Shown: positions 19,288-55,783 of the stretch, piece after piece
Numbering within the stretch: the first letter of the stretch is position 1
How the letters are laid out: each line of letters opens with the position of its first letter
Source of the DNA: an uncultured delta proteobacterium
GTDB lineage: Bacteria > Desulfobacterota > Binatia > UBA9968
Direction of reading: 5' to 3'
Length of the DNA: 64,000 bases
Assembly: GCA_963804165.1 (NCBI GenBank)
Contig: CAWDPO010000001.1
Coordinates: 64,001 to 128,000, forward strand
Notes under the pieces: model-generated
What the model was told of the DNA's origin: nothing
Seen by the model: the letters and a program-made list of their open reading frames with translations, nothing else
The model's database searches: none
Translations under genes and position numbers: made by a program

Positions 19288-20697
19288 ATGGCTACGACTG
19301 ATCCTAGAGTTGCAGTCAACATATTGTACGCTGAAGACGATCCCGCCTCTGGCCGTCTGGTAAAATCGATCGCATCCACCGAAGGATACTCCGTCATGGT
19401 GGTTCCCACTGGCGAGGAGTTCTTGCGAGCCCTGGATGACAAGCCCGACCTGATACTCCTCGATCTTCACTTACCGGATGCATCCGGGCTGGACTTGCTC
19501 GCGCGCTCGCGAGCGCGCTATCCGGACGTGCCGGCGATCGTCGCAACCGCATCAAATTCGATCAACGACCCCGTGGCCGCGCTCAAAGGCGGCGCGATGG
19601 ACTATCTCACTAAACCCATCGACCATCAGCGTCTCGTCGTCTCGCTCGCCAACGCGATAAAAATACTGCGCCAACAGCAAGACCTTACCCAGCTTCGGTC
19701 AGAGCTCAAGGAAACCTATAAACTCGAGCATATGATCGGCGGCTCGCCCGCGATGTCCCACGTTCGGGAACTGATCCGCCAGGTCGCGCCAAGCGATGCG
19801 ACCATTCTAATCATGGGCGACAGCGGCACCGGCAAAGAACTCGTCGCGCGAGCGCTTCATTATTCCAGCCCGCGAGTGGGCAAGCCCTTCATTGACGTAA
19901 ACTGCGCGGCGCTCAGCGAGACCTTGATCGAAAGCGAATTATTCGGTCATGAAAGAGGCGCGTTCACCAGCGCGATTTCGCGTCGACGCGGAAAGTTCGA
20001 GCAAGCGAACGGCGGCACGCTGTTTCTCGATGAGATCGGTGACATGCCGCTGTCGACTCAGGCAAAGATGTTGCGCGTGCTGCAGGAGCGAACGTTTCAG
20101 CGCGTGGGAGGAGAAGATAAGATTACGGTCAACGTTCGCGTCATCTGCGCCACCAACCGCAATCTTGAAGATGCGGTTCAAGCAGGAACATTCCGTATGG
20201 ACCTTTTTTATCGGGTTAATATGTTTGTGATCGAGGTCCCGCCGCTGCGTGAGCGCGCGGCCGACATTCCCGAGTTGGCTCGACATTTCTTAGCGATGAG
20301 CAGCCGATCCGGAAAATATGCCGCTCGGTCGATTTCCGACGCGGCGCTCGTCGCGCTCGGCAAACATCGTTGGCCGGGAAATGTGCGCGAGCTACAGAAC
20401 GCGATCGAACGGGCTCTGATGATTTGTCATGAGGAGGAAATCCAAACCTCACACCTGCCCCCGGCTGTGCTGCATGAACCCCGGTCCGATCCCCAACAAG
20501 CCTACAATCCCGCTAGCCTTAACGGTCAAAATTTGGTGGAAGCAGTGGAAGATTTCGAACGCTCCATGATTCTGGCCGCGTTGGAAAAATGCGACTGGAA
20601 TAAGTCCCAAGCGGCGCGACAACTCGGAGTCACGCGGCGAATCTTATCGTACAAGATGAATAATCTCGGCATCGACAAGTCCACTCTCGATCAATAG
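19288..20697 (+). CDS. Sigma54-dependent response regulator (NtrC/AtoC type: REC-AAA-HTH)
   Basis: REC with LLDLHLPD and KP; [30 protein letters not shown] and WPGNVREL; Fis-type HTH. Confidence 0.95.
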   Translation: MATTDPRVAVNILYAEDDPASGRLVKSIASTEGYSVMVVPTGEEFLRALDDKPDLILLDLHLPDASGLDLLARSRARYPDVPAIVATASNSINDPVAALKGGAMDYLTKPIDHQRLVVSLANAIKILRQQQDLTQLRSELKETYKLEHMIGGSPAMSHVRELIRQVAPSDATILIMGDSGTGKELVARALHYSSPRVGKPFIDVNCAALSETLIESELFGHERGAFTSAISRRRGKFEQANGGTLFLDEIGDMPLSTQAKMLRVLQERTFQRVGGEDKITVNVRVICATNRNLEDAVQAGTFRMDLFYRVNMFVIEVPPLRERAADIPELARHFLAMSSRSGKYAARSISDAALVALGKHRWPGNVRELQNAIERALMICHEEEIQTSHLPPAVLHEPRSDPQQAYNPASLNGQNLVEAVEDFERSMILAALEKCDWNKSQAARQLGVTRRILSYKMNNLGIDKSTLDQ

Positions 20698-20926
20698 CTT
20701 AAACTGCACTGCGGGCAAATTGATGGAGTTGAGCCGTCGCCGAAATCACTGCCCACCCAGTCGCACGTCAAACACGCCGGCTTGGGATCCACGCCCGGCC
20801 TGACCCTAAATCGCATCTTTGTCCACTTCTGTTCGTTTTTGTAATTCGCACGCATCCCAGCGCTGAATTCACACTCATTTCTAATTGAAAATATTGAGAA
20901 TTCATCAGGTCAGGAGCGCTTAAGTT

Positions 20927-20941
20927 TGGCATAATGGTTGC
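20927..20941 (+). promoter_or_regulatory. Sigma54 promoter
   Basis: TGGCAT-AATGG-TTGC, 230 bp downstream of the sigma54 activator gene. Confidence 0.75.
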
Positions 20942-20952
20942 CTGGTATTTTG

Positions 20953-21060
20953 TAGCATCGCAACCGAAACCGACGGCATCCTTAACCCTTTTAACCATCG
21001 TTATCACCTCCTCGATTGGTTATTCGCTCTGCCGTACGGTTCCGACACCGGCACAAGCTA
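20953..21060 (+). ncRNA. Candidate sigma54-dependent hairpin sRNA with anti-Shine-Dalgarno loop
   Basis: Outer stem AACCGACGGCA/TGCCGT(A)CGGTT, inner stem TAACCATCG/CGA(T)TGGTTA, loop TTATCACCTCCT; begins at the expected +1 of the sigma54 promoter. Confidence 0.45.
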
Positions 21061-21382
21061 ATGACTCATCGATCTCACCAAAAGCACTGCACGCAACTGT
21101 TTGCGCTGGATCTATTCACGCCGTTGACGCTTCTCGCGCGCGTTAATTTCCGGATCCCGCCAGCTAGTCGGAAAATCACTGACAAAGGCAACGGCATCGA
21201 TCACTGCCGTGTGCGGTTTGCACACGCCCATTCTATCGATCACGCGAAGCCTGCATTTGCACTTGAAGAATGTCATCGGGATGCCGATGCAGTTAACTGT
21301 ATAGCAAGCAAATATTTGGGGAATTTCGCGAATGCCCGACCATACTCCCAAGAGACTGGACAGCGAGAAAGAACAGGGCTCG

Positions 21383-24046
21383 ATGGCGCTGTTTAGCCGA
21401 TTGCGCTTCGGTCTCGCGGCGCAAATCGTGACCGTGGTCGTGCTGATGGTTGTACTGGTCGGCGGGCTGATCAGCACCGTGATGGTGCGCCAGAGCCAAA
21501 ACATGCTGCACGCGCAGATCATCGCCAACAATCTTGCTTCCGTCGACCTTGCCGCTGAATTGGCCCACCGCTACATCGAAGGCACACAGATAGCCATCCG
21601 GCTTTTTGCCCGGAGCCCGTTCATCGAACAATCGGTGTTCAGCGGCGATTTCAGCCGCGCAAGTCCGGAGCTCCAGGAATTTCTCCGACTCAACCCGCGG
21701 GTGAACAGTTGCGGCCTGATCGACAGCAATGGCAACTACCGCGCCACGGGCACGACTCGGGCAGTAAGCCTCGGTAACTCGGCACGACACCGGGAATGGT
21801 TTCAGCACGTGATAGCGACCGGGAACGCCTATCTCGGATTGCCGACGATTACGCGCAGCAACGCCCGGCCCGTGGTTCCCTACGTCGTTCCTATTCGCAC
21901 TTCAGAAGCAGAAACAAAGGGTATGCTCATTTGCGGCATCTCGCTTGCGGCGCTCAACGACGCGTTCACAAGGTTCCAAACCGGCCCTTCCTCCCGTGCT
22001 TCTCTCACCGATCGGCGTGGTAATGGCATTATCCTAGCTGACCGGGACCGCAATCGCATCCTGGCAACGCCCACGGGACGCAACCAAGCAGTAGATCGGA
22101 TGCTCAAGGGCGAGCGCGGTGCCATCGAGACGACCGACAGCGCTGGCGAGCTGAATCTTGCAGTCTACGCACCGGTACCGGACTTGCCTTGGGGAATCAT
22201 GATTCTGCAACCGAGCAAAGCTGCCTTCGCTCCCATCCACGAAGCCGCACGGCAGGGCGCGTTTTTCATAGCCCTGCTTCTGGTACCTTCAGCGGTGGTC
22301 AGCGGATTATTGGCGCGGCGCGTGACCCGCCCGCTGATACGGCTTCGCACGGCGGCCGGCCGCCTCGCCGCAGGCGATATCGCAACACGGCTGAACCTTA
22401 CCCGACACGACGAGGTCGGCGACCTCGGCCGCGCTTTCGATCAGATGGCGATGGCGCTCGCGGACCACTCGGCACAGTTGCGGGCTGCCAACGAGGACTT
22501 GCACGCGCAATATCTCCAGGTCCAGGACGCCAATCGCTTGAAAAGCGAATTTCTCGCCAATATGTCCCACGAATTGCGCACACCGCTGAACGCCATTATC
22601 GGTTTTGCCCAACTCCTGCACGACGGTAAAGTTGGAGCGGTCAGTGCCGACCAGCGGGAATATCTTAACGATGTCCTCACCAGCGCCGATCATCTGCTCC
22701 AACTCATTAACGACGTGCTCGATCTCGCGAAAGTAGAGTCGGGCAAATTGGAGTTCGATCCCGAGCCGGTCCATCTCACGAAATTGATCGCCGAGGTGCG
22801 TAACATCCTTCAGCCTCTGGCGGCGGCCAGGCGATTAACCATCGCCGCCGAGGTCGACGATGCCGTGGAGCAGGTAGTCATTGATCCAGCGAAACTGAAG
22901 CAGGTGCTGTACAACTATCTTTCCAACGCCATCAAGTTCACGCCCGAGGAGGGACGTATCTCAGTGCGAGCGCGCATGGAGGATCGTGCGCATTTTCGTC
23001 TGGAGGTCGAAGACAGCGGTATCGGCATCCTGCCCGATGAAATGGAAAAGCTTTTTGTCGCATTTCAACAACTCGATTCGAGCACGACGAAAAAGCACCA
23101 AGGCACCGGACTCGGACTCGCTCTCACCAAAAAGATCGTCGAAGCTCAAGGCGGCCGCGTCGGTGTTCAGAGTCATCGAGGGCGAGGGAGCATCTTCTAC
23201 GTGATTTTGCCCCTAGCCGCAGATATGAAAAAATCGCCCGCGCCGGTCCATTCTGCGCCCGAGCCAGACGCGCCCACCATCCTTGTCATTGAAGACAACG
23301 AAGCGGATCTCAACTGGTTGAACCAGACTTTGACCCAAGCGGATTATCGCGTTGAGACAGCAAAGACCGGCGCCGAAGCGATAATGAAATCACAGGCACG
23401 CCTGTACGCGGCGGTTTTGCTCGATCTCATTCTGCCCGACACCGGCGGCTGGGAGATTTTGCACGCGATTCGTAGCGCCGGTCCCAACGCGAACACACCG
23501 GTAGTCGTCGTTACCGTCGTCGCCGAAAAAGGCGTGGCTCGGGGTTTTCCGGTTCAAGACTACCTGGTGAAACCGATCCAGCCCAATGCGCTCCTGCACG
23601 CGTTAAAAAACGCCGGCGTACACCCCAGGGACAACGCAAAAAAAGTCATGGTCCTGGATGACGACGCAAAAACCCTGAAACTCGCCCAGGTCGGTCTTCA
23701 AGCCGACGGCTATGAGGTTGTATGCCATCGCAGCGGCGCCAGCGCGCTTCATGATGCAGCGCAGTCAGAATTTGCCGCAGTTGTCCTGGATTTGTTGATG
23801 CCACAGATGGACGGTTTCGAATTTCTCGATCGCTTTCGCCAAATCGACAAGTGTCGAAACACGCCGGTGATTGTCTGGACGAACAAAGATATCACCAGCG
23901 CCGATTTCGAACGGCTTAAAACTTCGGCCCAGACCATCGCACTGAAGAACCGTGATGGCATCGGTACCGTGCTTAAAGCGTTGCAGCACCAAACGCCAGC
24001 GGGCGGAACCGCACCGACGATAGAAAAAACTGGAAACGCCCGTTAA
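21383..24046 (+). CDS. Membrane hybrid histidine kinase (dCache-HAMP-HisKA-HATPase-REC-REC)
   Basis: Two TM helices; HAMP DEVGDL; FLANMSHELRTPLN, NAIKFT, DSGIGI and GTGLGL; two REC domains; alternative start at 21332. Confidence 0.93.
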   Translation: MALFSRLRFGLAAQIVTVVVLMVVLVGGLISTVMVRQSQNMLHAQIIANNLASVDLAAELAHRYIEGTQIAIRLFARSPFIEQSVFSGDFSRASPELQEFLRLNPRVNSCGLIDSNGNYRATGTTRAVSLGNSARHREWFQHVIATGNAYLGLPTITRSNARPVVPYVVPIRTSEAETKGMLICGISLAALNDAFTRFQTGPSSRASLTDRRGNGIILADRDRNRILATPTGRNQAVDRMLKGERGAIETTDSAGELNLAVYAPVPDLPWGIMILQPSKAAFAPIHEAARQGAFFIALLLVPSAVVSGLLARRVTRPLIRLRTAAGRLAAGDIATRLNLTRHDEVGDLGRAFDQMAMALADHSAQLRAANEDLHAQYLQVQDANRLKSEFLANMSHELRTPLNAIIGFAQLLHDGKVGAVSADQREYLNDVLTSADHLLQLINDVLDLAKVESGKLEFDPEPVHLTKLIAEVRNILQPLAAARRLTIAAEVDDAVEQVVIDPAKLKQVLYNYLSNAIKFTPEEGRISVRARMEDRAHFRLEVEDSGIGILPDEMEKLFVAFQQLDSSTTKKHQGTGLGLALTKKIVEAQGGRVGVQSHRGRGSIFYVILPLAADMKKSPAPVHSAPEPDAPTILVIEDNEADLNWLNQTLTQADYRVETAKTGAEAIMKSQARLYAAVLLDLILPDTGGWEILHAIRSAGPNANTPVVVVTVVAEKGVARGFPVQDYLVKPIQPNALLHALKNAGVHPRDNAKKVMVLDDDAKTLKLAQVGLQADGYEVVCHRSGASALHDAAQSEFAAVVLDLLMPQMDGFEFLDRFRQIDKCRNTPVIVWTNKDITSADFERLKTSAQTIALKNRDGIGTVLKALQHQTPAGGTAPTIEKTGNAR

Positions 24047-24065: not shown

Positions 24066-26426
24066 ATGCCGAAAAAATCTCCGCCACGGCGACCAAAGAA
24101 ACGCACACAGGGACGCAATCCACCTCCAAAGATAGGACGCGGGCTGCGCACGATGCTCCTCGAAGCTTCACCGGACGCGCTGATCGCACTGAATCTCGAC
24201 GGTACCATTCTTTATTGGAGCGCCGGGGCCGAGGGCGTGTATGGCTACACCAAAGAAGAGGCGATCGGCATGCGCCTGGATGATTTAATCGTGCCGCCGG
24301 AGCTCACCGGCGACAGTGAGCAGATCACTCGGGAGACCATCGACAGTGGCGCCGCGGTGCATGAAACATTACGTCACAAAAAAGACGGCTCGACCATTTA
24401 CGTTAATGTTACCGCCAAAGCCGTGCGCGCTCAGAACGGCGACGTCGAGTTCGTCGCCGAGAATCACAAGGATGTGACCCCGCTCAAAGTCTCAAATCAC
24501 GGAAAAATGCTCGAGGCGAGATACAGCGGCCTTCTCGAATCGGTGCCCGACGCCATCGTCATGGTGAACAAGACCGGACGAATCGTTCTCGTAAACGGAC
24601 AAGCCGAAGAATTGTTCGGTTACAGCCGCGACGAACTGCTGGGAAAGCCCGTGGAAGAGTTGTTACCCAAACGTTACCGCGACGGTCACGTGGCGCACCG
24701 GACCCGTTATTTTTCCGAGCTCAAGACCCGCTCCATGGGCGCCGGTTTAGAGCTATTCGCCAACCGCAAAGACGGCGCGGAAATTCCCGTCGAAATCAGC
24801 CTGAGCCCGCTCCGAACCGCAGAAGGCGTGTTCGCCATGACCGCCATCCGCGACATCACGGATCGAAAAAAGCTCCAGGAAGAACTGCGCAAGACTAACG
24901 AAGAGCTGCAACAGCAAAACCTGTCGGCGCAACAAGCCAATCGCCTCAAGAGCGAGTTTCTCGCCAATATGTCGCATGAGCTGCGCACGCCGCTCAACGG
25001 CATCATCGGTTTCGCCGAGATCATGCATGATGAAAAAGTCGGCCCGATCTCGCCGGATCACAAAGAGTATCTGCACGACATTCTGACTAGCGCGCGCCAT
25101 CTGTTGCAGCTGATTAACGATGTCCTCGATCTCTCCAAAGTGGAATCCGGAAAGTTCGAATTCATGCCGGAAAATATCGATCCGGTGATCCTCGTCGGCG
25201 AGGTACGGGATATCGTGCGCACGCTGGCGGCCAAGAAGCGGATCAAGCTCCAAACCGAGATCCATCCCTCGCTCTCGAGCATCGAAGGCGACGCACGCAG
25301 TCTGAAGCAGATCCTTTACAATTACATCTCGAACGCTCTCAAGTTCACCCCGGAAGAAGGCGAAGTCAAAGTGAGCATCATGCCGCAAGACGCCGGCGAC
25401 TTCCGCATCGAAGTGGCCGACACCGGCATCGGCATCCGGCCGGAAGATTTGAATCGGCTCTTCGTGGAATTCCAGCAGCTCGACACCAGCAGCACTGAGC
25501 AATACGCCGGGACGGGTCTGGGGCTCGCGTTGACGAAAAGGATAGTCGAAGCACAAGGCGGCCATGTTGGCGTCAAGAGCACGCCGGGCAAAGGCAGCAT
25601 CTTTTACGCTACGTTGCCGCGAGCCAAGGGTGTAGCGGCAACGATTGTCCACGAGACGCAGGCGGTCGCGATGCCCGGCGCGCCGCTGATTCTCGTTGTC
25701 GAAGATGATGCCAGCGACCGCGCTTCCATCGCCACGGCATTGCGCGGCGCCGGTTACGCGGTCGAGGCCGTCGCCACCGGAGCCGAGGCTCTGGTGCGCT
25801 CCCGGGAGCAGCGCTTCAACGCCATCACTCTCGATATCATACTGCCGGACATGAGCGGGCGCGCCGTACTGGAGAAGCTGCGCGAGCGCGGCCTCAACCA
25901 GCAGACGCCGGTGATCATTGTGACCTTGCTGGCGCACAAGGGAGTCGTCGCCGGTTTCCAAGTCACCGATATCCTGTCAAAGCCGGTCGCCCAGAGTGAA
26001 CTCATAAAAGCCCTCGAGCGCTGCAGCGTCGCCCCCGGCAAGGTTCGGCCCATTCTTGTCGTGGATGATGACGAAACCTCTTTGCGGCTTGCCGATGAAA
26101 TGCTGCGCCAGCTCGGCTACCGGACGGTTTGCCACCAAGATGCTAAGAGGGCACTGCGGGCTGCATCCAAGGAACACCCGGCTGCGGTCGTCCTCGACCT
26201 CGTCATGCCGGAAATGACCGGCTTCGAGTTTCTCACGCGCTTTCGCAAAACCATCCGAGGCCGGCGTACTCCCGTGATTGTTTGGACCGGCAAGGACTTG
26301 ACCGACATGGAGCGCGCCGAGTTGCGCTCCGCGGCGAGTATCATCACCAGGAAAACGGAACAAGCCGAGGAACTGGTGCACGAAATCCAGAGCATTCTGA
26401 GGGCGCCGGAGAGGTTCGCACACTAA
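24066..26426 (+). CDS. Cytoplasmic hybrid histidine kinase (PAS-PAS-HisKA-HATPase-REC-REC)
   Basis: Two PAS domains (PDA..., RKDG, RDITDRK), SHELRTPL, HATPase boxes and two REC domains. Confidence 0.93.
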   Translation: MPKKSPPRRPKKRTQGRNPPPKIGRGLRTMLLEASPDALIALNLDGTILYWSAGAEGVYGYTKEEAIGMRLDDLIVPPELTGDSEQITRETIDSGAAVHETLRHKKDGSTIYVNVTAKAVRAQNGDVEFVAENHKDVTPLKVSNHGKMLEARYSGLLESVPDAIVMVNKTGRIVLVNGQAEELFGYSRDELLGKPVEELLPKRYRDGHVAHRTRYFSELKTRSMGAGLELFANRKDGAEIPVEISLSPLRTAEGVFAMTAIRDITDRKKLQEELRKTNEELQQQNLSAQQANRLKSEFLANMSHELRTPLNGIIGFAEIMHDEKVGPISPDHKEYLHDILTSARHLLQLINDVLDLSKVESGKFEFMPENIDPVILVGEVRDIVRTLAAKKRIKLQTEIHPSLSSIEGDARSLKQILYNYISNALKFTPEEGEVKVSIMPQDAGDFRIEVADTGIGIRPEDLNRLFVEFQQLDTSSTEQYAGTGLGLALTKRIVEAQGGHVGVKSTPGKGSIFYATLPRAKGVAATIVHETQAVAMPGAPLILVVEDDASDRASIATALRGAGYAVEAVATGAEALVRSREQRFNAITLDIILPDMSGRAVLEKLRERGLNQQTPVIIVTLLAHKGVVAGFQVTDILSKPVAQSELIKALERCSVAPGKVRPILVVDDDETSLRLADEMLRQLGYRTVCHQDAKRALRAASKEHPAAVVLDLVMPEMTGFEFLTRFRKTIRGRRTPVIVWTGKDLTDMERAELRSAASIITRKTEQAEELVHEIQSILRAPERFAH

Positions 26427-26477: not shown

Positions 26478-26873
26478 ATGGAGCAAGACACGATCTTGGT
26501 CGTTGACGATAATCCTTTGAACATGAAACTTGTCCGGGTCCTGCTCGCCGGAGAGGGTTATCACGTGCGAACCGCCGCTGACGCCGGAGAAGCTCTGACG
26601 GTTCTGAACGAATGTCATCCGCGCTTGATTCTAATGGACATCCAGTTGCCGGGGATCGATGGCCTCGAACTAACCCGGCGATTGAAAGCCGACCCATCGA
26701 CCCGTGACATCACGATCGTCGGGCTCACGGCGTACGCGATGAAAGGCGACGAGGAACGGATTCGCGCCGCCGGCTGCGACGGTTACATTCCCAAGCCGAT
26801 CGACACGAGAACGTTACCAGGCTTCATCAAGGCATACTTAAAGGACGACGCGCCAAAGACCGGCGCCACCTAG
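26478..26873 (+). CDS. Single-domain response regulator, DivK-like
   Basis: VVDDNPLNMKL, LILMDIQLPG and TAYAMKGDEERIR..GCDGYI.KP closely match the DivK pattern. Confidence 0.9.
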   Translation: MEQDTILVVDDNPLNMKLVRVLLAGEGYHVRTAADAGEALTVLNECHPRLILMDIQLPGIDGLELTRRLKADPSTRDITIVGLTAYAMKGDEERIRAAGCDGYIPKPIDTRTLPGFIKAYLKDDAPKTGAT

Positions 26874-38123: not shown

Positions 38124-38465
38124 CTAATCAATATTGCGACCCATGTGAGGGTCGATTTTGCGCACGATCTCGGTTTTGCTCGCGGCGCCCAGCAGGCGTT
38201 CGATTTCCGCGCCGTCTTTAAAGAGAATCAGTGTCGGAATCCCGCGAACGTCGTAACGCGCTGCGGTGCGCGGGCTGTCGTCGACATTCAATTTGACAAC
38301 CCGGCCGCGCTCAGCCCAATCGATCGCGAGCGCTTCAACCGTCGGCGCGAGCGCACGGCATGGCGTGCACCACTCGGCCCAAAAATCCACCAATACCGGT
38401 TTTTCTGAGTGCAAAACCTCCTGCTCGAAATTGTCATCGTTTATTTCCCCGATCGCTCTACTCAT
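38124..38465 (-). CDS. trxA: Thioredoxin
   Basis: PVLVDFWAEWCTPC, KLNVD and RGIPTL.LFKDG motifs; the start overlaps the upstream stop (ATGA). Confidence 0.9.
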   Translation of the reverse strand: MSRAIGEINDDNFEQEVLHSEKPVLVDFWAEWCTPCRALAPTVEALAIDWAERGRVVKLNVDDSPRTAARYDVRGIPTLILFKDGAEIERLLGAASKTEIVRKIDPHMGRNID

Positions 38466-38737
38466 CGTCGTTCTCCTCCTTTGATCTCTTCGATGATCGC
38501 GGTGATCATGCAACCCGCGGCGGCCAGCTCCGCGCCTTGCCGATGCATCTCGGCTAATACGATCCGTCCCGCCTGATCGACATACGACACCTGTTTCAGC
38601 ACGACGGTGACCTGCTCGCCGCTGCCGACAGCGCGCTGCCAGCATTCTTTCAATTCTGCGACCCAAGGACCGGTGAGGCTCCCCTCGAGCTCAAGAATCG
38701 TCTGCTGACCGTCAGCGTGAGTCGTGATTTTCAACAT
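38462..38737 (-). CDS. STAS-domain (anti-sigma antagonist-like) protein
   Basis: MLKIT..LELEG.L.GPWV.EL, V.L..VSYVD..G..L. Confidence 0.75.
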   Translation of the reverse strand: MLKITTHADGQQTILELEGSLTGPWVAELKECWQRAVGSGEQVTVVLKQVSYVDQAGRIVLAEMHRQGAELAAAGCMITAIIEEIKGGERR

Positions 38738-39471: not shown

Positions 39472-39487
39472 GCAACATGGGTGCCAA
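39472..39487 (-). promoter_or_regulatory. Sigma54 promoter
   Basis: TTGGCAC-CCATG-TTGC on the minus strand. Confidence 0.85.
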
Positions 39488-42222: not shown

Positions 42223-42684
42223 TCATCTGCGAGACGGCGGCTGATACGTTCCCGGCTCAGCGCGAAAACTGATCGTAATGCGATTCCAAGCGTTGATCGT
42301 GACCACCGTTAGGGTTAAATCCGCCAACTCCTGTTCACTGAATTGCCGGCGAGTCTGTTCGTAGAGTTCATCCGGCGCGTGATTGTCGGCGATCAACGTC
42401 AGAGTTTCGGTCCAGTCCAGGGCGGCGCGCTCGCGTTCGCTGTAGTACGGCGCCTCCCGCCACGCGACCAAACCGTAAAGGCGCTGTTCGGTTTCGCCTG
42501 CGGCCCGCGCGTCTTTCCAATGCATATCGATGCAATAAGCGCAGCCGTTGATTTGCGACGCGCGCAGCTTGATCAATTCGCGCAGCGGCGGCTCGATGCT
42601 GCTTTCGGCTAAATATTTCTCCAGGCCATACATTGCCCGTAACGCGCCGGATGCGACTTTGGTGTAATCGATTCGGGGTAACAT
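42223..42684 (-). CDS. Carboxymuconolactone decarboxylase/AhpD family protein
   Basis: LRASQINGCAYCIDMH, WRE, ERAAL and INAWNR motifs. Confidence 0.92.
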   Translation of the reverse strand: MLPRIDYTKVASGALRAMYGLEKYLAESSIEPPLRELIKLRASQINGCAYCIDMHWKDARAAGETEQRLYGLVAWREAPYYSERERAALDWTETLTLIADNHAPDELYEQTRRQFSEQELADLTLTVVTINAWNRITISFRAEPGTYQPPSRR

Positions 42685-42725
42685 CAAATTTCTCCTTTTT
42701 GTTTAATTCTCGAATCAGGTCGGTT

Positions 42726-43092: not shown

Positions 43093-43107
43093 GCAATGGT
43101 TGTGCCA
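43093..43107 (-). promoter_or_regulatory. Sigma54 promoter
   Basis: TGGCAC-AACCA-TTGC on the minus strand. Confidence 0.85.
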
Positions 43108-43297: not shown

Positions 43298-44401
43298 TCA
43301 GCCTCGCAACGCCAATGGCAGAACTTCGTCGATCAAGACCTGATCGAACTTTTTGGGCTCTTCAAACGGTGGATTATGAGCCGACTGCTCGAACCAAACC
43401 AATCGTTTGTACGGCGCGTTGACTTTGTCGAAGTACGTTTTGGCCAGAACCGACGGGACATGCCAATCATACCGTCCAAGCAGAAAGAAAATCGGCACGC
43501 CAAAGGATCGATACTGTTCACGAAGATTTAACCGCGCATTCTCGTCATCGAGATGGGTCAAGGAAAAGTGGTTACCCTGTCCAAACTTGATCAGATCGAC
43601 CAAGTTAGTCTCGTCCGTATTCAAAGCCGTCCAGATCAGCTTGCCGGTGGAAAGACCGCCATGGTACATGCCGCCGAACCGCTCCACCCACTCGCCTAAC
43701 GTAAGCCGATCTAAGACATTGCGAGGCAAAGGACAAATTCCACTCAGTTCACGCAAGGCGCTGTCATCGCCGTGTCTTTTGGCCGCCGACAAGGCGAACT
43801 CACAGGATAGCCGGGTTTCTTCGACGGGATTGGAAACTTGCGCGACTCCGACGTAGGCTGCGACATTCTCAGGATGGCGGTAGGAATAGATTGCCCCTAA
43901 CGCGCTGCCCCAGGAATGACCGAGTAGTACGACTTCATTTTTATGAAAGCGCTGCTTGACTAACTCGACGACTTCGTCGAGATCGCGTAAAAGTTGCTCA
44001 ATCGTCATCGACTCGGGCGGAATGTCCGAATGATACGAGCGGCCCGCGCCGCGCTGCTCCCAGTAAACAACCAGAAAGTGTTTTTCGAGTTCGGCGTTGT
44101 AATGGCGAAAAAGCGCGGATTCACTGGCGCCCGGCCCGCCGTGCAGCAGAATAAGTGCAGGGTTGTTACGGTCTTGACCGCGAAACCAGATACTTTGGGA
44201 AACGCCGCCGATACTGACGTTTTCCATTGTCGCGACGCTGCCGGGAATCACGCCACCGTGCGCATCCGTGAATGGCGCCGTACGAACGCATCCCGGGCAC
44301 GACAACAAAAGTAGGATAACGGCAAAGCGCGGAAAAAAATAACAGGATGAAAAACCGATGACCGAACCATAATCCTGGCTCGCTGTGCGAAATGTCTCCA
44401 T
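43298..44401 (-). CDS. Alpha/beta hydrolase (proline iminopeptidase-like), exported
   Basis: LHGGPG, WEQRGAG, GHSWG nucleophile, GRYD and SAH.P..EEP motifs. Confidence 0.9.
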   Translation of the reverse strand: METFRTASQDYGSVIGFSSCYFFPRFAVILLLLSCPGCVRTAPFTDAHGGVIPGSVATMENVSIGGVSQSIWFRGQDRNNPALILLHGGPGASESALFRHYNAELEKHFLVVYWEQRGAGRSYHSDIPPESMTIEQLLRDLDEVVELVKQRFHKNEVVLLGHSWGSALGAIYSYRHPENVAAYVGVAQVSNPVEETRLSCEFALSAAKRHGDDSALRELSGICPLPRNVLDRLTLGEWVERFGGMYHGGLSTGKLIWTALNTDETNLVDLIKFGQGNHFSLTHLDDENARLNLREQYRSFGVPIFFLLGRYDWHVPSVLAKTYFDKVNAPYKRLVWFEQSAHNPPFEEPKKFDQVLIDEVLPLALRG

Positions 44402-44449: not shown

Positions 44450-45139
44450 TCATTTATCCAGCCAAATATTCATCCCTGTGCCGGTTTCTTCGATGGCGAG
44501 TTTGCTAAAACGACTGCTTGCGACCAGTTCTTCGATCTCATTTTTGACATAGGCGCGTTTCTTCAGCATCAGCTCAAAAGTCCATTTCGTAATGAACGTG
44601 TCCCACCAGCTCAGGCCGATCGTGTCGACGTATTCATCGATGGTTTCCTTCGGCGCGTCCCGGCGCAAATCTATGATCAATGCTCTGGCGCCGTCTTTCA
44701 AAACGCGATGCATTTCATTGAGCGCGGCGGCGGGATGGGCAAAATTCTTGAACGCCGCGCGGCAAACGAGGAAATCGAATGTGGCATTTTCGTATGGCAT
44801 AACTGCCACATTGCCCTGACGAAAGTCGATGTGGACGCCCGCTGCGCGGGCATTTTCTTGGGCGATTTGGACAAAAGTTCTGCTGATATCCAAGCCAAAA
44901 ATCTGATAACGGCGTAGCTTCGCAAGCTCGATGGCGAGATAACCCGGTCCTGGAGCGACTTCCAAAACTCGGCTGCCCTCCGGCAAATGTCTGGTTATAT
45001 CGCTTGCGCACTGTTTGAACTCTGTGAGCGTTTTCGCCGTATTCTTCGCATACCAACGGGCGACCGGCCCCTCCATCGCCAGTCCTTTGTAGCCCTTTGA
45101 GTGTTTCGGCCTGATCTCGTCAGTCTGAATAATATCCAT
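44450..45139 (-). CDS. Class I SAM-dependent methyltransferase (UbiE-like)
   Basis: VLEVAPGPG, GLDIS, FD and EMHRVLK motifs; start placed at 45139, downstream of the promoter. Confidence 0.9.
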   Translation of the reverse strand: MDIIQTDEIRPKHSKGYKGLAMEGPVARWYAKNTAKTLTEFKQCASDITRHLPEGSRVLEVAPGPGYLAIELAKLRRYQIFGLDISRTFVQIAQENARAAGVHIDFRQGNVAVMPYENATFDFLVCRAAFKNFAHPAAALNEMHRVLKDGARALIIDLRRDAPKETIDEYVDTIGLSWWDTFITKWTFELMLKKRAYVKNEIEELVASSRFSKLAIEETGTGMNIWLDK

Positions 45140-45160
45140 GTTCGCTCCGCTTGAATTAAA

Positions 45161-45177
45161 TGCAATGTCGGTGCCAA
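45161..45177 (-). promoter_or_regulatory. Sigma54 promoter
   Basis: TTGGCAC-CGACA-TTGCA on the minus strand. Confidence 0.8.
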
Positions 45178-45589
45178 TAGTGAATTCCACAGAGAGTCCG
45201 GAAAACTAAAGACTGCAATTATCGCGAGGCGAAATCACAATCAAAATTGTGATGAACTGAGACCTGTTCATGCCTCAGCGGCACGGGCGCAGGAAGATTC
45301 ATACACGCCGCTTCATTTCCTCCATACGGCCGGTGGCAACGGTTGAAGATCCATCGATGTCGTGCGCGCCAATAACGACCAAAAATGTAGGAGGAAAAAA
45401 CCTTCGACGGCTTAAGCGCAGATCAGAACGACTCGGTGCGATCCTCACCAAAGATTTCCTTGTGCTTGGCGTCAACCAGATTGGCATTGAACCAACTCGG
45501 GTAAAGGTTCGCCGGCGCGGAGATCCGCCGACTCGAAGCAACTCAAAAGAACTTGCTACGTCAATGACGAAGCTGGAACGAGCACGCCT

Positions 45590-45997
45590 TCAGTTGATTT
45601 GCTCTCGCTCCCGTGGATACGCCGGCAGTCGATCATCTAAAACAATCCAGGATAGACAGCTCTCCGTCCAGGTATGATCTTCCGGTATCAGTGTTTCCGG
45701 TTCGTCCAGGCTGCCGAGTGTTACGTCAATGGAGTCCGGCAAATCGGCGCGACGATAAGTCAATGCAGTTCCGCAATGACTGCAGAAAGTGCGCTTGACG
45801 TTTGGCGAGGACGCGTAGAAAGCCGGTTCGCGCTTGGTAAACGTGAATTTGTCTGTATCGAAACCGGCCCACGTCACAAACGGCGCGCCGCTCGCACGGC
45901 GGCAGGTTTTGCAATGGCAATGGGTGATGCCATGAGCCGGTCCATATGCGCGATAGCGAATTGCGCCACAAAGACATCCGCCTTCAATAGCTTCCAC
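45590..45997 (-). CDS. GFA (CENP-V/glutathione-dependent formaldehyde-activating) family protein
   Basis: GGCLCG, CHC..CRR and R.FC..CGT motifs. Confidence 0.92.
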   Translation of the reverse strand: MEAIEGGCLCGAIRYRAYGPAHGITHCHCKTCRRASGAPFVTWAGFDTDKFTFTKREPAFYASSPNVKRTFCSHCGTALTYRRADLPDSIDVTLGSLDEPETLIPEDHTWTESCLSWIVLDDRLPAYPREREQIN

Positions 45998-46806: not shown

Positions 46807-46822
46807 GCAACGCGCATGCCAA
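46807..46822 (-). promoter_or_regulatory. Sigma54 promoter
   Basis: TTGGCAT-GCGCG-TTGC on the minus strand. Confidence 0.85.
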
Positions 46823-51559: not shown

Positions 51560-53620
51560 CTAGTTGGTGCGAGCGATGCCTAACTTTTTCATTCTCGACT
51601 GCAGCGTGGTTCGCTTTATGCCGAGCCGGACCGCGGCGCCCGTAGGTCCGCCGATGGTCCAGTTCGTTTCGGAGAGGGCGCGCATGATGTGGTCTCGTTC
51701 GGCGTGCTCCAGCGTCGCGAGACCGTTTGAAGATTCGAACACTGGGGTTTTCGTTCTTTGCTTTAACTCCGCCAGAGGAAACTGGAGCTCCGTACCGCGG
51801 GATAGAATCACCGCGCGCTCGATGAAGTTTTCGAGCTCGCGCACATTGCCGGGCCAGTGATATTCCGTCAGGGCGCTCATTGCCTTTGTCGGTATCGTAT
51901 CTATCGGCTTTTTCATCCGGCGCGCGTGCTTCTGCGCGAAATACCGCACCAGCAGCGGAATATCTTGCCTCCGCTCCCGTAGCGTCGGCAGGACGATCGG
52001 AAAAACGTTGAGCCGGTAGTAGAGGTCCCTGCGAAATTGATTCTCGGCCACCTTTTGCGCCAGATCGGCGTTGGTGGCGGCGACTAAACGAACGTCTACC
52101 CGGATCGTCCGCGCGCTACCGAGACGTTCGAATTCCTGCTCTTGCAGCACGCGGAGAAGCTTGGGCTGGAGGTCGAGGGAGATGTCGCCGACTTCGTCGA
52201 GGAAGAGCGTGCCTCGGTGCGCGAGCTCGAATCGCCCTTGGCGCTGGGCAATAGCCCCAGTAAAGGCACCCTTTTCGTGTCCGAATAGCTCGCTTTCGAG
52301 CAGGCCCGTCGGAATCGCAGCGCAGTTTACCTTGACCAGCGTGCGCTCGCGTCGGGCGCTCAAATGATGTATGGCGCGCGCGATCAATTCCTTGCCGGTG
52401 CCGGTCTCGCCCAAGATGAGAATCGTCGAATCGGTGGGCGCCACGGTCTGCAATTCTTTAAGAATCCCCTTCAACACGGGACTTTCACCGACGATCTCTT
52501 CAAAGTTGTACTCGGTGCGAATCTCATCTTGCAGGTAGAGCTTTTCTTCGCTCAGTTGATTGGCCCGCTCCACTTCCCTGCGATAGGCGAGCGAATTTTC
52601 GACCGCGATGGCGATCTGATTGGCGACGTTTCGCAGCAGTTCGGCATCGCGTTCCGGAAAATTCTCCTCGTGCAGACTGGCCACAACGAGCGTACCCAAA
52701 GGTCGGCCGTGAGAAATCAGGGGCAAGACGTAGCCCGACTTCAGCCCTTCGGCGAGGATACGCCGGGCAATGTCGGAGCCAAATTGTTCAATGTCGCTAC
52801 GGGTGATGAAAACCGGCCGACGCGTGGTCAAGGCCCGACCGGTCGGTGTCCCCTCGATGGGCACCGAAAGACCCTCTTGAATAAGCCCCTTGCTGATCGG
52901 GAAGTCTAAGGCGTGAATTTGCAGCCGCTGTGTTTCCGGATCGAAAAGAGACAGGCTGGCGTATTCATGTGGCACCAAGCGTCGCAGCGAGCCTGACACG
53001 GCGTTCAGCAACTCGTGCAAATCGAGCACCGAGACGATGGTATTATTTACTTCAAGCAGTATATTCAGACGGTCGCGTTCTTCCTTGAGTTGCTGCTGCA
53101 CCGATTGGGCTTCGGCAAAATTAAGCGCGTTATCCAAAGCGACCGCGACTTGCCGAGCTACCTGCTGCAGGAAGATGACGTCAATCTCAGAATAGGCTCC
53201 TTCAAGTCGGCTGCCGAAAGCCAGGGCTCCGAGTTTCCTGAGCGCTGTGGTCACTGGAACGACGCAGAGCGACGATACCCCGCGGCTGCATAGCCACTGC
53301 GCCACCTCAGGAAACCGCGTCTCGCTGCTAAGCTTTGCCGCCACCCACGGTTTTTGCGTATCCCGCACCCAACCGCCCGGGGTTTCCATCGGACAATCGC
53401 CGGGCGGACAAGTATACGCCGGGTCCGGCGTCTCCAGAACATGGGATTTCATCACCTGCCGCGTCGGTTCGTAGAGAATCAGATTGGCAAAGTCGAACTG
53501 CACGACATGATGCAGCCGCGGCGCAAGGTCTTTGAAGAGCTGGTCGAGATCGCGTTGCGACGCGATTCTTTCGGAAATTTCGAGCAAAGTTTGGAATTGG
53601 CTGTGCAAAAGATCCATCAT
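51560..53620 (-). CDS. FhlA-type sigma54 enhancer-binding protein (GAF-GAF-AAA-HTH)
   Basis: Two GAF domains; [23 protein letters not shown] and WPGNVREL; HTH GAAVRLG.KRTTL. Confidence 0.95.
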
Positions 53621-53978
53621 TTGGCACTCGCGGGAACTGAATTCTACGCGCCTAAGAGTATACGGCGACCGGCGCCGGATCAAGACGTCGGGCTCGATGA
53701 CCCCGTCAGATCGTCGCGACAGTTTGACCCATTCAAGGTCAATCATGGAAAACAATAATTCAGAAAAATTCTGGCAGTGGATTGCTCGTTCGAGTAATAT
53801 TTCATTGCGACATTCTTGCGTGGTTGAATGACACCTTGGGAGAACACCAGTATTTGATTTTGGTTGCGGGGCACCTTTGATCCTCCTCTGATTGGGCAGT
53901 CAGATTTAGAAGATCTTTCTCTCCAGCAGCTCGCCTCCGTTCCTTAAAAAAATCTGCAAACGTCGCAGGCTAGGAGTT

Positions 53979-55767: not shown

Positions 55768-55783
55768 AGCAAGGGCTATGCCA
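55768..55783 (-). promoter_or_regulatory. Sigma54 promoter
   Basis: TGGCAT-AGCCC-TTGCT on the minus strand. Confidence 0.75.

Follow-up and report, generated by a model that had tools for sequence, protein, structure and literature searches.

A sigma-54 promoter beside an NtrC-type activator gene, its probable kinase operon, and a 16S rRNA tail match in the predicted leader

In the window (the whole stretch of DNA analyzed, 64,000 nt), the gene for an NtrC-type activator is followed by a sigma-54 promoter-like site, a nested hairpin, and, in the loop of that hairpin, a copy of the 3' tail of 16S rRNA. These three features raise the question of what kind of RNA would start there. The original prediction was a stand-alone small RNA (sRNA) presenting an anti-Shine-Dalgarno (anti-SD) loop, the RNA output of a kinase island. 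The reading that we consider fairly probable, judging from sequence comparisons, is that the site is a sigma-54 promoter for a kinase operon, that the hairpin lies in the long leader of this operon, and that the mimic of the rRNA tail probably has no function. The features of the locus are as follows.

19288 to 20697, plus strand: NtrC-type sigma-54 activator (REC, sigma-54 interaction AAA+, and Fis-type HTH domains by Pfam), 469 aa
20768 to 20998, minus strand: 76-aa open reading frame (ORF) with AGGAGGTGATAACG-ATG, overlapping the promoter and the upstream blocks
20834 to 20844, plus strand: upstream block CGTTTTTGTAA, about 110 nt ahead of the predicted start, near-invariant in G000, G041, G015, and G056
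20864 to 20904, plus strand: imperfect inverted repeat found by repeat search (18-nt arms, 78% complementary)
20927 to 20941, plus strand: sigma-54 promoter TGGCAT-AATGG-TTGC (−24 GG, −12 GC; predicted start at about 20952 to 20954)
20953 to 21331, plus strand: predicted 5' leader of the kinase operon, about 380 nt, the first ~45 nt conserved
20968 to 21041, plus strand: nested hairpin (outer stem 20968-20978/21030-21041, inner stem 20992-21000/21013-21022)
21001 to 21012, plus strand: 12-nt loop TTATCACCTCCT, containing ATCACCTCCT, the 16S rRNA 3' tail
21332 to 24046, plus strand: hybrid histidine kinase HK-B (dCache, HAMP, HisKA, HATPase, and two receivers by Pfam), 904 aa, the first gene past the promoter
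24066 to 26426, plus strand: hybrid histidine kinase HK-C (PAS, HisKA, HATPase, and receivers by Pfam), 786 aa
26478 to 26873, plus strand: single-domain response-regulator receiver (Pfam Response_reg, E = 2.4e-26), 131 aa

Promoter, activator, and upstream sites

The near-consensus motif TGGCAT-N5-TTGC had been described as lying 230 nt after a REC-AAA-HTH gene and about 400 nt before the next coding sequence, and all of this was present: the site begins 230 nt past the activator stop (20697) and is 391 nt ahead of the coding sequence at 21332. It has the GG and GC, 10 nt apart, of the consensus TGGCAC-N5-TTGCW, and its final base, a C, leaves the stricter TTGCW form unmatched. We counted the pattern TGGYAY-N5-TTGC in the window, where it occurred 6 times against 0.32 expected (a count reached by 0 of 100 shuffles), and in the whole genome, where it occurred 175 times against 49 in a reversed-sequence control (about 3.6-fold enrichment). 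Of the 175 matches, 140 (80%) fell outside crude gene calls, which is 23% of the genome; these calls took ATG-first ORFs of 100 aa or longer and settled overlaps greedily, and the distances and percentages derived from them are approximate. This motif class is enriched both in the window and in the genome, and the promoter is the only one of the three features to stand above chance. The genome also encodes RpoN (Sigma54_DBD match, E value = 5.4e-62, contig C38). With respect to crude gene starts, 56 of 139 motif sites lay within 100 nt of a gene, and 391 nt falls in the upper part of the distribution; since nine further intergenic sigma-54 motifs were 350 to 500 nt from the next crude gene start, this distance is unusual but not unique. 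By its sequence, the site at 20927 to 20941 is a genuine sigma-54 promoter.

The activator gene next to it encodes a protein with Pfam matches to Sigma54_activat (E value = 2.7e-72), Response_reg, and HTH_8. It has at least 53 matches within its own genome (52 of 130 candidates scored) and similar numbers in relatives, and the lineage, in this genome and in the family, is very rich in sigma-54 activators. The most likely activator of the promoter would be this NtrC-type protein encoded just upstream, and there are two candidate activator sites upstream of the promoter, the inverted repeat at 20864 to 20904 and the conserved TTTTTGTAA block. The boxes of the repeat, TGAATTCA (20864 to 20871) and AGAATTCA (20897 to 20904), are both of the (T/A)GAATTCA type, with centers at about −85 and −52 from the predicted start, and conserved blocks sit alongside them. 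The repeat is a plausible candidate enhancer (UAS), and the block at 20834 to 20844 is a possible site for the activator or for an architectural protein. Two blocks were common to four loci (this genome, G000, and G041, G015, and G056), namely TGTC...CGTTTTTGTA, some 110 nt ahead of the start, and AATTC, at around −50. A search with the upstream motifs for other targets of the activator gave no convincing second site.

Elsewhere in the window we observed five more sigma-54 promoter-like motifs, all on the minus strand (39472 to 39486, 43093 to 43107, 45162 to 45176, 46807 to 46821, and 55769 to 55783). Four of the five lie within 8 kb, ahead of small redox/detoxification-type genes, and the set looks, from its sequence, like a second, separate sigma-54 regulon. 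The genes concerned are listed here.

38124 to 38666: thioredoxin, behind the minus-strand motifs
42223 to 42687: CMD/AhpD-like protein, behind the minus-strand motifs
44450 to 45190: methyltransferase, behind the minus-strand motifs, with an alpha/beta hydrolase at 43298 to 44401
45590 to 45997: GFA-family protein, behind the minus-strand motifs
51560 to 53755, minus strand: GAF-GAF-AAA-HTH sigma-54 activator, near the minus-strand motifs

Orthologous loci and the kinase operon

As DNA, the intergenic region matched nothing in 40 relatives and was single copy in its own genome, and we compared loci by way of the activator protein instead. Orthologues of the activator (67 to 96% identity; paralogues have about 47% or less) were present in 10 of 89 other family genomes, a count that, like those for the genus, takes in the unpublished genome G005, on which no specific claim rests. 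Usable downstream sequence was available for eight of the ten loci (the G006 sequence ends 85 nt past the activator gene, and that of G020 breaks off within it). When metagenomes were scanned with the activator protein, only paralogues were recovered, the best match being 47% identical, and a scan of genome contigs gave identities of 38 to 47% among the matches listed. Three of the eight loci have a sigma-54 motif past the activator gene.

G041: motif TGGCATACCGGTTGCC, 229 nt after the activator stop; the next gene, about 140 nt on, encodes a kinase
G015: motif TGGCTCGGTGGTTGCT, 198 nt after the activator stop; the next gene, about 95 nt on, encodes a kinase
G056 (another genus): motif TGGCACAGCCATTGCT, 272 nt after the activator stop; a small ORF about 55 nt on, then a longer one

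No such motif was found in the other five loci (G045, G024, G012, G092, and G063); in G063, a kinase gene begins 46 nt past the activator gene. The distance from activator stop to promoter is near-identical here and in G041 (230 versus 229 nt), and in all three motif-bearing loci a gene starts 55 to 140 nt downstream of the promoter, a histidine kinase gene in G041 and G015. The small ORF of G056, about 60 aa long (MGRFLTIDEAAAMLQVSKRTLHRLIRR...), may resemble short helix-turn-helix DNA-binding proteins. With rpoN present and the −24/−12 elements and upstream blocks conserved in three orthologous loci, the part of the original prediction that placed a sigma-54 promoter beside an NtrC-type activator is supported.

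The genes downstream were compared in the same way. HK-B is 72% identical to its G041 counterpart, counted as third past the activator gene, and HK-C is 78% identical to the neighboring kinase in G041 and 72% identical to the one in G015. The gene order in G041 is activator, promoter, HK-A, HK-B, HK-C, and the order here is activator, promoter, HK-B, HK-C, receiver; kinase A is thus absent from this locus. The receiver gene at 26478 to 26873 is the probable last gene of the kinase operon. HK-B of G041 and G020 is longer, with an extra N-terminal multipass membrane domain of about 200 aa that is absent here. The G020 activator is 96% identical to ours, and nucleotide homology with G020 starts only at 21381. 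A 903-aa protein from another assembly, P0006, has the same N terminus as HK-B (MPDHTPKRL...; MPGHTHKRLNAEKEQVSMAL versus MPDHTPKRLDSEKEQGSMAL), which indicates that the short form is not an assembly artifact and supports the start codon at 21332. The proteins of the closest relatives are labeled Candidatus Binatia bacterium.

Between the hairpin and the conserved part of HK-B, we found no detectable relative of the sequence at 21042 to 21380. This stretch of about 340 nt, which includes the first 17 codons of HK-B, was otherwise seen only in the one other assembly, that of P0006. We considered whether 21042 to 21331 might be the decayed remnant of the first kinase. Nothing significant was found by tblastn, blastn, or tblastx, and Smith-Waterman alignment with the N termini from G041 and G063 gave P values of 0.15 and 0.62 by shuffling. 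This candidate was dropped, as none of the similarity searches supported it. No terminator-like site was found between 20400 and 21600, where shuffled sequence would be expected to have 1.5, nor was there another promoter-like site between the hairpin and 21332.

From this arrangement, we infer that transcription from the promoter would read through into the co-oriented operon, comprising the dCache kinase gene at 21332, the PAS kinase gene at 24066, and the receiver gene at 26478. The activator would then raise the level of its probable partner kinases in a feedback loop, and the hairpin at 20968 to 21041 would be part of the 5' leader of the operon mRNA. The loss of the first kinase, together with the N-terminal membrane domain of HK-B, probably left the leader of about 380 nt, which would be unusually long only in this lineage. 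The kinase array behind the promoter gains and loses genes, and in this genome the outcome would be the long leader.

Sigma-54 promoters beside genes for enhancer-binding proteins are known to drive adjacent two-component genes, as in autoregulation of the NtrC/glnALG type. The present locus resembles that type in the canonical spacing of −24 GG and −12 GC, in the NtrC-type REC-AAA-HTH activator next door, in the candidate upstream sites at about −50 to −110, and in the co-oriented operon with probable partner kinases. It differs in the place of the activator gene, which precedes the promoter and is not part of the operon, whereas glnL-glnG are inside the operon that is regulated; moreover, the leader here is about 380 nt long, and besides the two hybrid kinases and the single receiver, the operon has no obvious gene for an effector.

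The hairpin, its loop, and the opposite strand

The nested hairpin is present as originally drawn and is the predicted minimum free energy (MFE) fold of 20953 to 21060 (−25.3 kcal/mol, z score = −2.24, 2 of 200 shuffles as good). For 20960 to 21045, the MFE was −23.2 kcal/mol (z score = −3.86, 1 of 200 shuffles as good). We then sampled 150 of the 1,086 intergenic regions that are 400 to 900 nt long, and all 300 strands contained an 86-nt window of −23.2 kcal/mol or lower, with a mean best value of −34.9 kcal/mol. The intergenic region of the hairpin itself has stabler 86-nt windows (−29.1 and −31.0 kcal/mol). The stability of the hairpin is ordinary for this genome and not exceptional, and its favorable z score comes from a locally low G+C content. 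Folding of the 393-nt leader as a whole left the nested hairpin out of both the MFE and the centroid structures, and the 5' arm of the hairpin paired with a distal segment; CCUCC was unpaired in the local folds and in the full 393-nt fold. Four public DNA runs yielded only short contigs, identical to the locus over 20923 to 21116 (X4) and 20784 to 20934 (X3), and the hairpin was free of variants.

Conservation of the structure was assessed on two or three leader sequences. The G041 alignment spans the promoter through the 5' arm (ATCGC.A.CC.AAACCG.CGGCAT) and resumes around the 3' arm, the interior of the hairpin being 51 nt here and 49 nt in G041. Only the core of the outer stem is common to G041, and nothing equivalent to the inner stem or the CCUCC loop was found in the leaders of G041 or G015. 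The leaders of these two genomes folded no better than shuffled sequences (z scores = +0.45 for G041 and −0.57 for G015). The RNAalifold consensus of two sequences was weak (−4.4 kcal/mol, 11 pairs, 10 of them invariant), and the only pair changed on both sides (alignment columns 5 and 104) lies outside the nested hairpin. In its centroid structure, G041 pairs CCGGCGG with CCGCCG. Pairing by hand turns A20973-U21035 into G-C in G041, a pair absent from the RNAalifold consensus. A lack of structural conservation, which the original prediction had itself named as a ground for refuting it, was thus observed in these leaders: the closest relative that could be aligned has neither the inner stem nor CCUCC.

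The first ~45 nt past the predicted start (within the stretch 20945 to 20998) are conserved in G041 and, according to the protein P0004 described below, in a closer relative, and both comparisons show more change in the DNA immediately ahead of −24 than in these nucleotides. The pattern hints that the 5' end of the leader is under some constraint. A tandem AACCGA AACCGA was also seen at 20962 to 20973, within the conserved part.

That the 12-nt loop holds the anti-SD sequence was confirmed against the 3' end of the genome's own 16S rRNA: the single 16S gene detected ends in ...GGATCACCTCCTTTCT, so the 10-nt identity between the loop and the rRNA tail is real. The same 10-mer, however, has 13 copies in the genome on both strands, against about 14 expected for a random 10-mer, and is at chance frequency. 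As a cis target, we checked the start region of HK-B, with which the loop forms a duplex of −5.5 kcal/mol; this equals the genome median, and 51% of genes do as well or better. The mimic of the 16S tail is lineage specific and, on sequence evidence, most likely without a function of its own. We also observed that CCTCC occurs in the first ~100 transcribed nt at 4 of 140 intergenic sigma-54 sites, against about 17 by a rough estimate from composition, and this scarcity may mean that leaders avoid anti-SD sequences.

On the minus strand, the bases of the loop read AGGAGGTGAT, an SD sequence. They could be the ribosome-binding site (RBS) and start of a real, young gene (76 aa, 20998 to 20768), of which the plus-strand anti-SD would be the complement; we regard this as unlikely. 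The start is ideal (AGGAGGTGAT, AACG, ATG), and the ORF was called by the gene caller in the source assembly (P0002). SD motifs are used in this genome (GGAGG precedes 11.4% of crude starts, versus 0.8% in the control), and of the 395 AGGAGG-N5-9-ATG sites lying outside crude genes, 344 begin reading frames of 50 aa or longer (100 aa or longer in 263 cases, 50 to 99 aa in 81; the other 51 frames are shorter). The composition of the ORF points the other way, with a codon-usage score of −0.088 and a GC3 of 0.43 that are non-coding-like. Among first-76-codon chunks of long genes, 97% score higher, as do 87% of SD-led ORFs of 50 to 99 aa; relative to ORFs without an SD, the score is at the 31st percentile. 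A mixture estimate from the score tails has such low-scoring SD-led ORFs spurious in about four cases out of five. There was no Pfam family match, the only match among 5.8 billion proteins was the ORF itself, and nothing better than an E value of 0.04 was found in 30 other genomes of the genus. With the promoter as anchor, the corresponding frame is interrupted by 5 stops in each of G041 and G056, and in G015 nothing similar is seen. Furthermore, the ORF runs antisense over the conserved promoter and upstream blocks, and no promoter-like site was found for it.

A phmmer search against 1.84 billion representatives produced one real match to the ORF, P0004, a 29-aa protein from a single 2,876-nt metagenome contig that is 79% identical to residues 1 to 28 and has the same start. 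(A 1,356-aa match, P0003, is a repeat protein that matched residues 27 to 49 nine times and was judged a composition/repeat artifact.) P0004 could be counted in favor of a gene, but in our reading its changes track the anatomy of the promoter and not a protein pattern. There are seven differences: the codons over −24 and −12 are unchanged, one difference falls in the N5 spacer, and changes affect 4 of 5 codons upstream of −24 and 2 of 18 over the first part of the transcript. Taken by side, 2 of 21 codons are changed toward the transcript start and 5 of 8 upstream (P value of about 0.02 by a post hoc binomial test for the clustering). One change, V9A, implies by the codon table an A-to-G substitution at 20973, the same base as in G041. 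The minus-strand ORF at 20768 to 20998 is probably not a conserved gene. The RBS alternative that accompanied the original prediction retains its perfect SD, start, and frame, but with non-coding codon usage and a frame broken in relatives, it is weak.

Alternative readings and known systems

Two further readings give the plus-strand RNA a function. One is that the hairpin is a cis-acting leader element, either a 5' stabilizing stem or a translational/attenuation switch, with the outer stem as its conserved part and the loop as a possible participant. The alignment of the first ~45 nt of the transcript with G041, including the 5' arm AACCGACGGCA, is consistent with this, as are the CCGGCGG/CCGCCG pairing in the G041 centroid over an interior of similar size (49 versus 51 nt), the change of A20973-U21035 to G-C in the hand pairing with the same A-to-G implied by P0004, and the z score of −3.9 against shuffles. 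The comparison of leaders covers two sequences whose stem registers differ, and the consensus pairs, 10 of 11 of them invariant, are uninformative either way. Moreover, the G041 and G015 leaders are no stabler than shuffles, the hairpin is lost in the MFE fold of the full leader, and the complementarity of the loop to the HK-B start is only median (−5.5 kcal/mol). We consider such an element quite unlikely. The other reading is the predicted stand-alone sigma-54-dependent sRNA of about 90 to 130 nt, whose loop would pair, as a mimic of the 16S tail, with the SD of target mRNAs. It fits the unpaired state of the loop in local and full-leader folds, a geometry like that of Pxr (see below), and the 4-in-140 frequency of CCTCC after sigma-54 motifs, which makes this site unusual. 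It fits poorly with most of what surrounds the promoter, which precedes a protein-coding gene in three orthologous loci and here has a co-oriented kinase operon downstream, with no other promoter-like site and no terminator-like 3' end (20400 to 21600). Neither the seed nor the inner hairpin is conserved, the 10-mer occurs about as often as chance predicts, and no paralogue was found among 175 promoter-downstream segments. An Rfam scan of 20600 to 21400 with E values up to 10, the check proposed with the prediction, returned no relevant family, only two chance-level matches elsewhere in the region (E values = 6.4 and 7.7). A stand-alone anti-SD sRNA as the output of the kinase island is thus unsupported, and we hold it to be very unlikely indeed.

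Small RNAs of the AbcR type, with C-rich loops, pair with SD regions, and the C-rich loops are their conserved part. The present hairpin likewise presents CCUCC in a loop, but the nearest relative that can be aligned lacks the motif. By geometry, the closest sRNA analogue is Pxr of Myxococcus xanthus, which is 108 nt long and encoded 262 nt after the activator gene nla19 with a sigma-54 promoter (PMC5568312; see also PMC5684412 for the sRNA behind nla19). Both loci have a sigma-54 promoter a few hundred nucleotides past the gene of a sigma-54-dependent response regulator and a stem-loop-rich RNA predicted to start there; unlike in the Pxr case, structure and loop here are not conserved, and a co-oriented operon follows without a terminator-like site. 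NtrC-family activators also drive regulatory RNAs from sigma-54 promoters in the pairs LuxO/Qrr sRNAs and CbrB/CrcZ (PMC4878744, PMC11407668, and PMC6296734). Qrr and CrcZ are conserved RNA families, in contrast to the region studied here, which has no Rfam match or conserved seed.

A more speculative version, which we rate as a long shot, would have the sigma-54-started RNA, with its loop-exposed 10-nt copy of the 16S tail, serve as an SD decoy or competitor, whether in trans, for mRNAs with a strong SD, or in cis, for the kinase operon. It would couple a two-component signal directly to translation initiation, the element having arisen recently and only in the lineage of this Binatia-like soil bacterium, on a conserved leader stem of greater age. 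If the loop acted on ribosome-binding sites, this would be a new kind of two-component output, and nothing here supports that.

We return to the kinase-operon promoter as the reading we prefer. What the analysis adds is mostly negative: the resemblance of a hairpin loop to the rRNA tail, striking as it is, comes down to a chance-frequency, nonconserved 10-mer. For annotation, the promoter and its upstream blocks have a value of their own as a conserved regulatory module across at least two genera. As found, the locus would represent an ordinary sigma-54 promoter in an uncultured soil lineage, feeding back on the kinases of its own signaling module.
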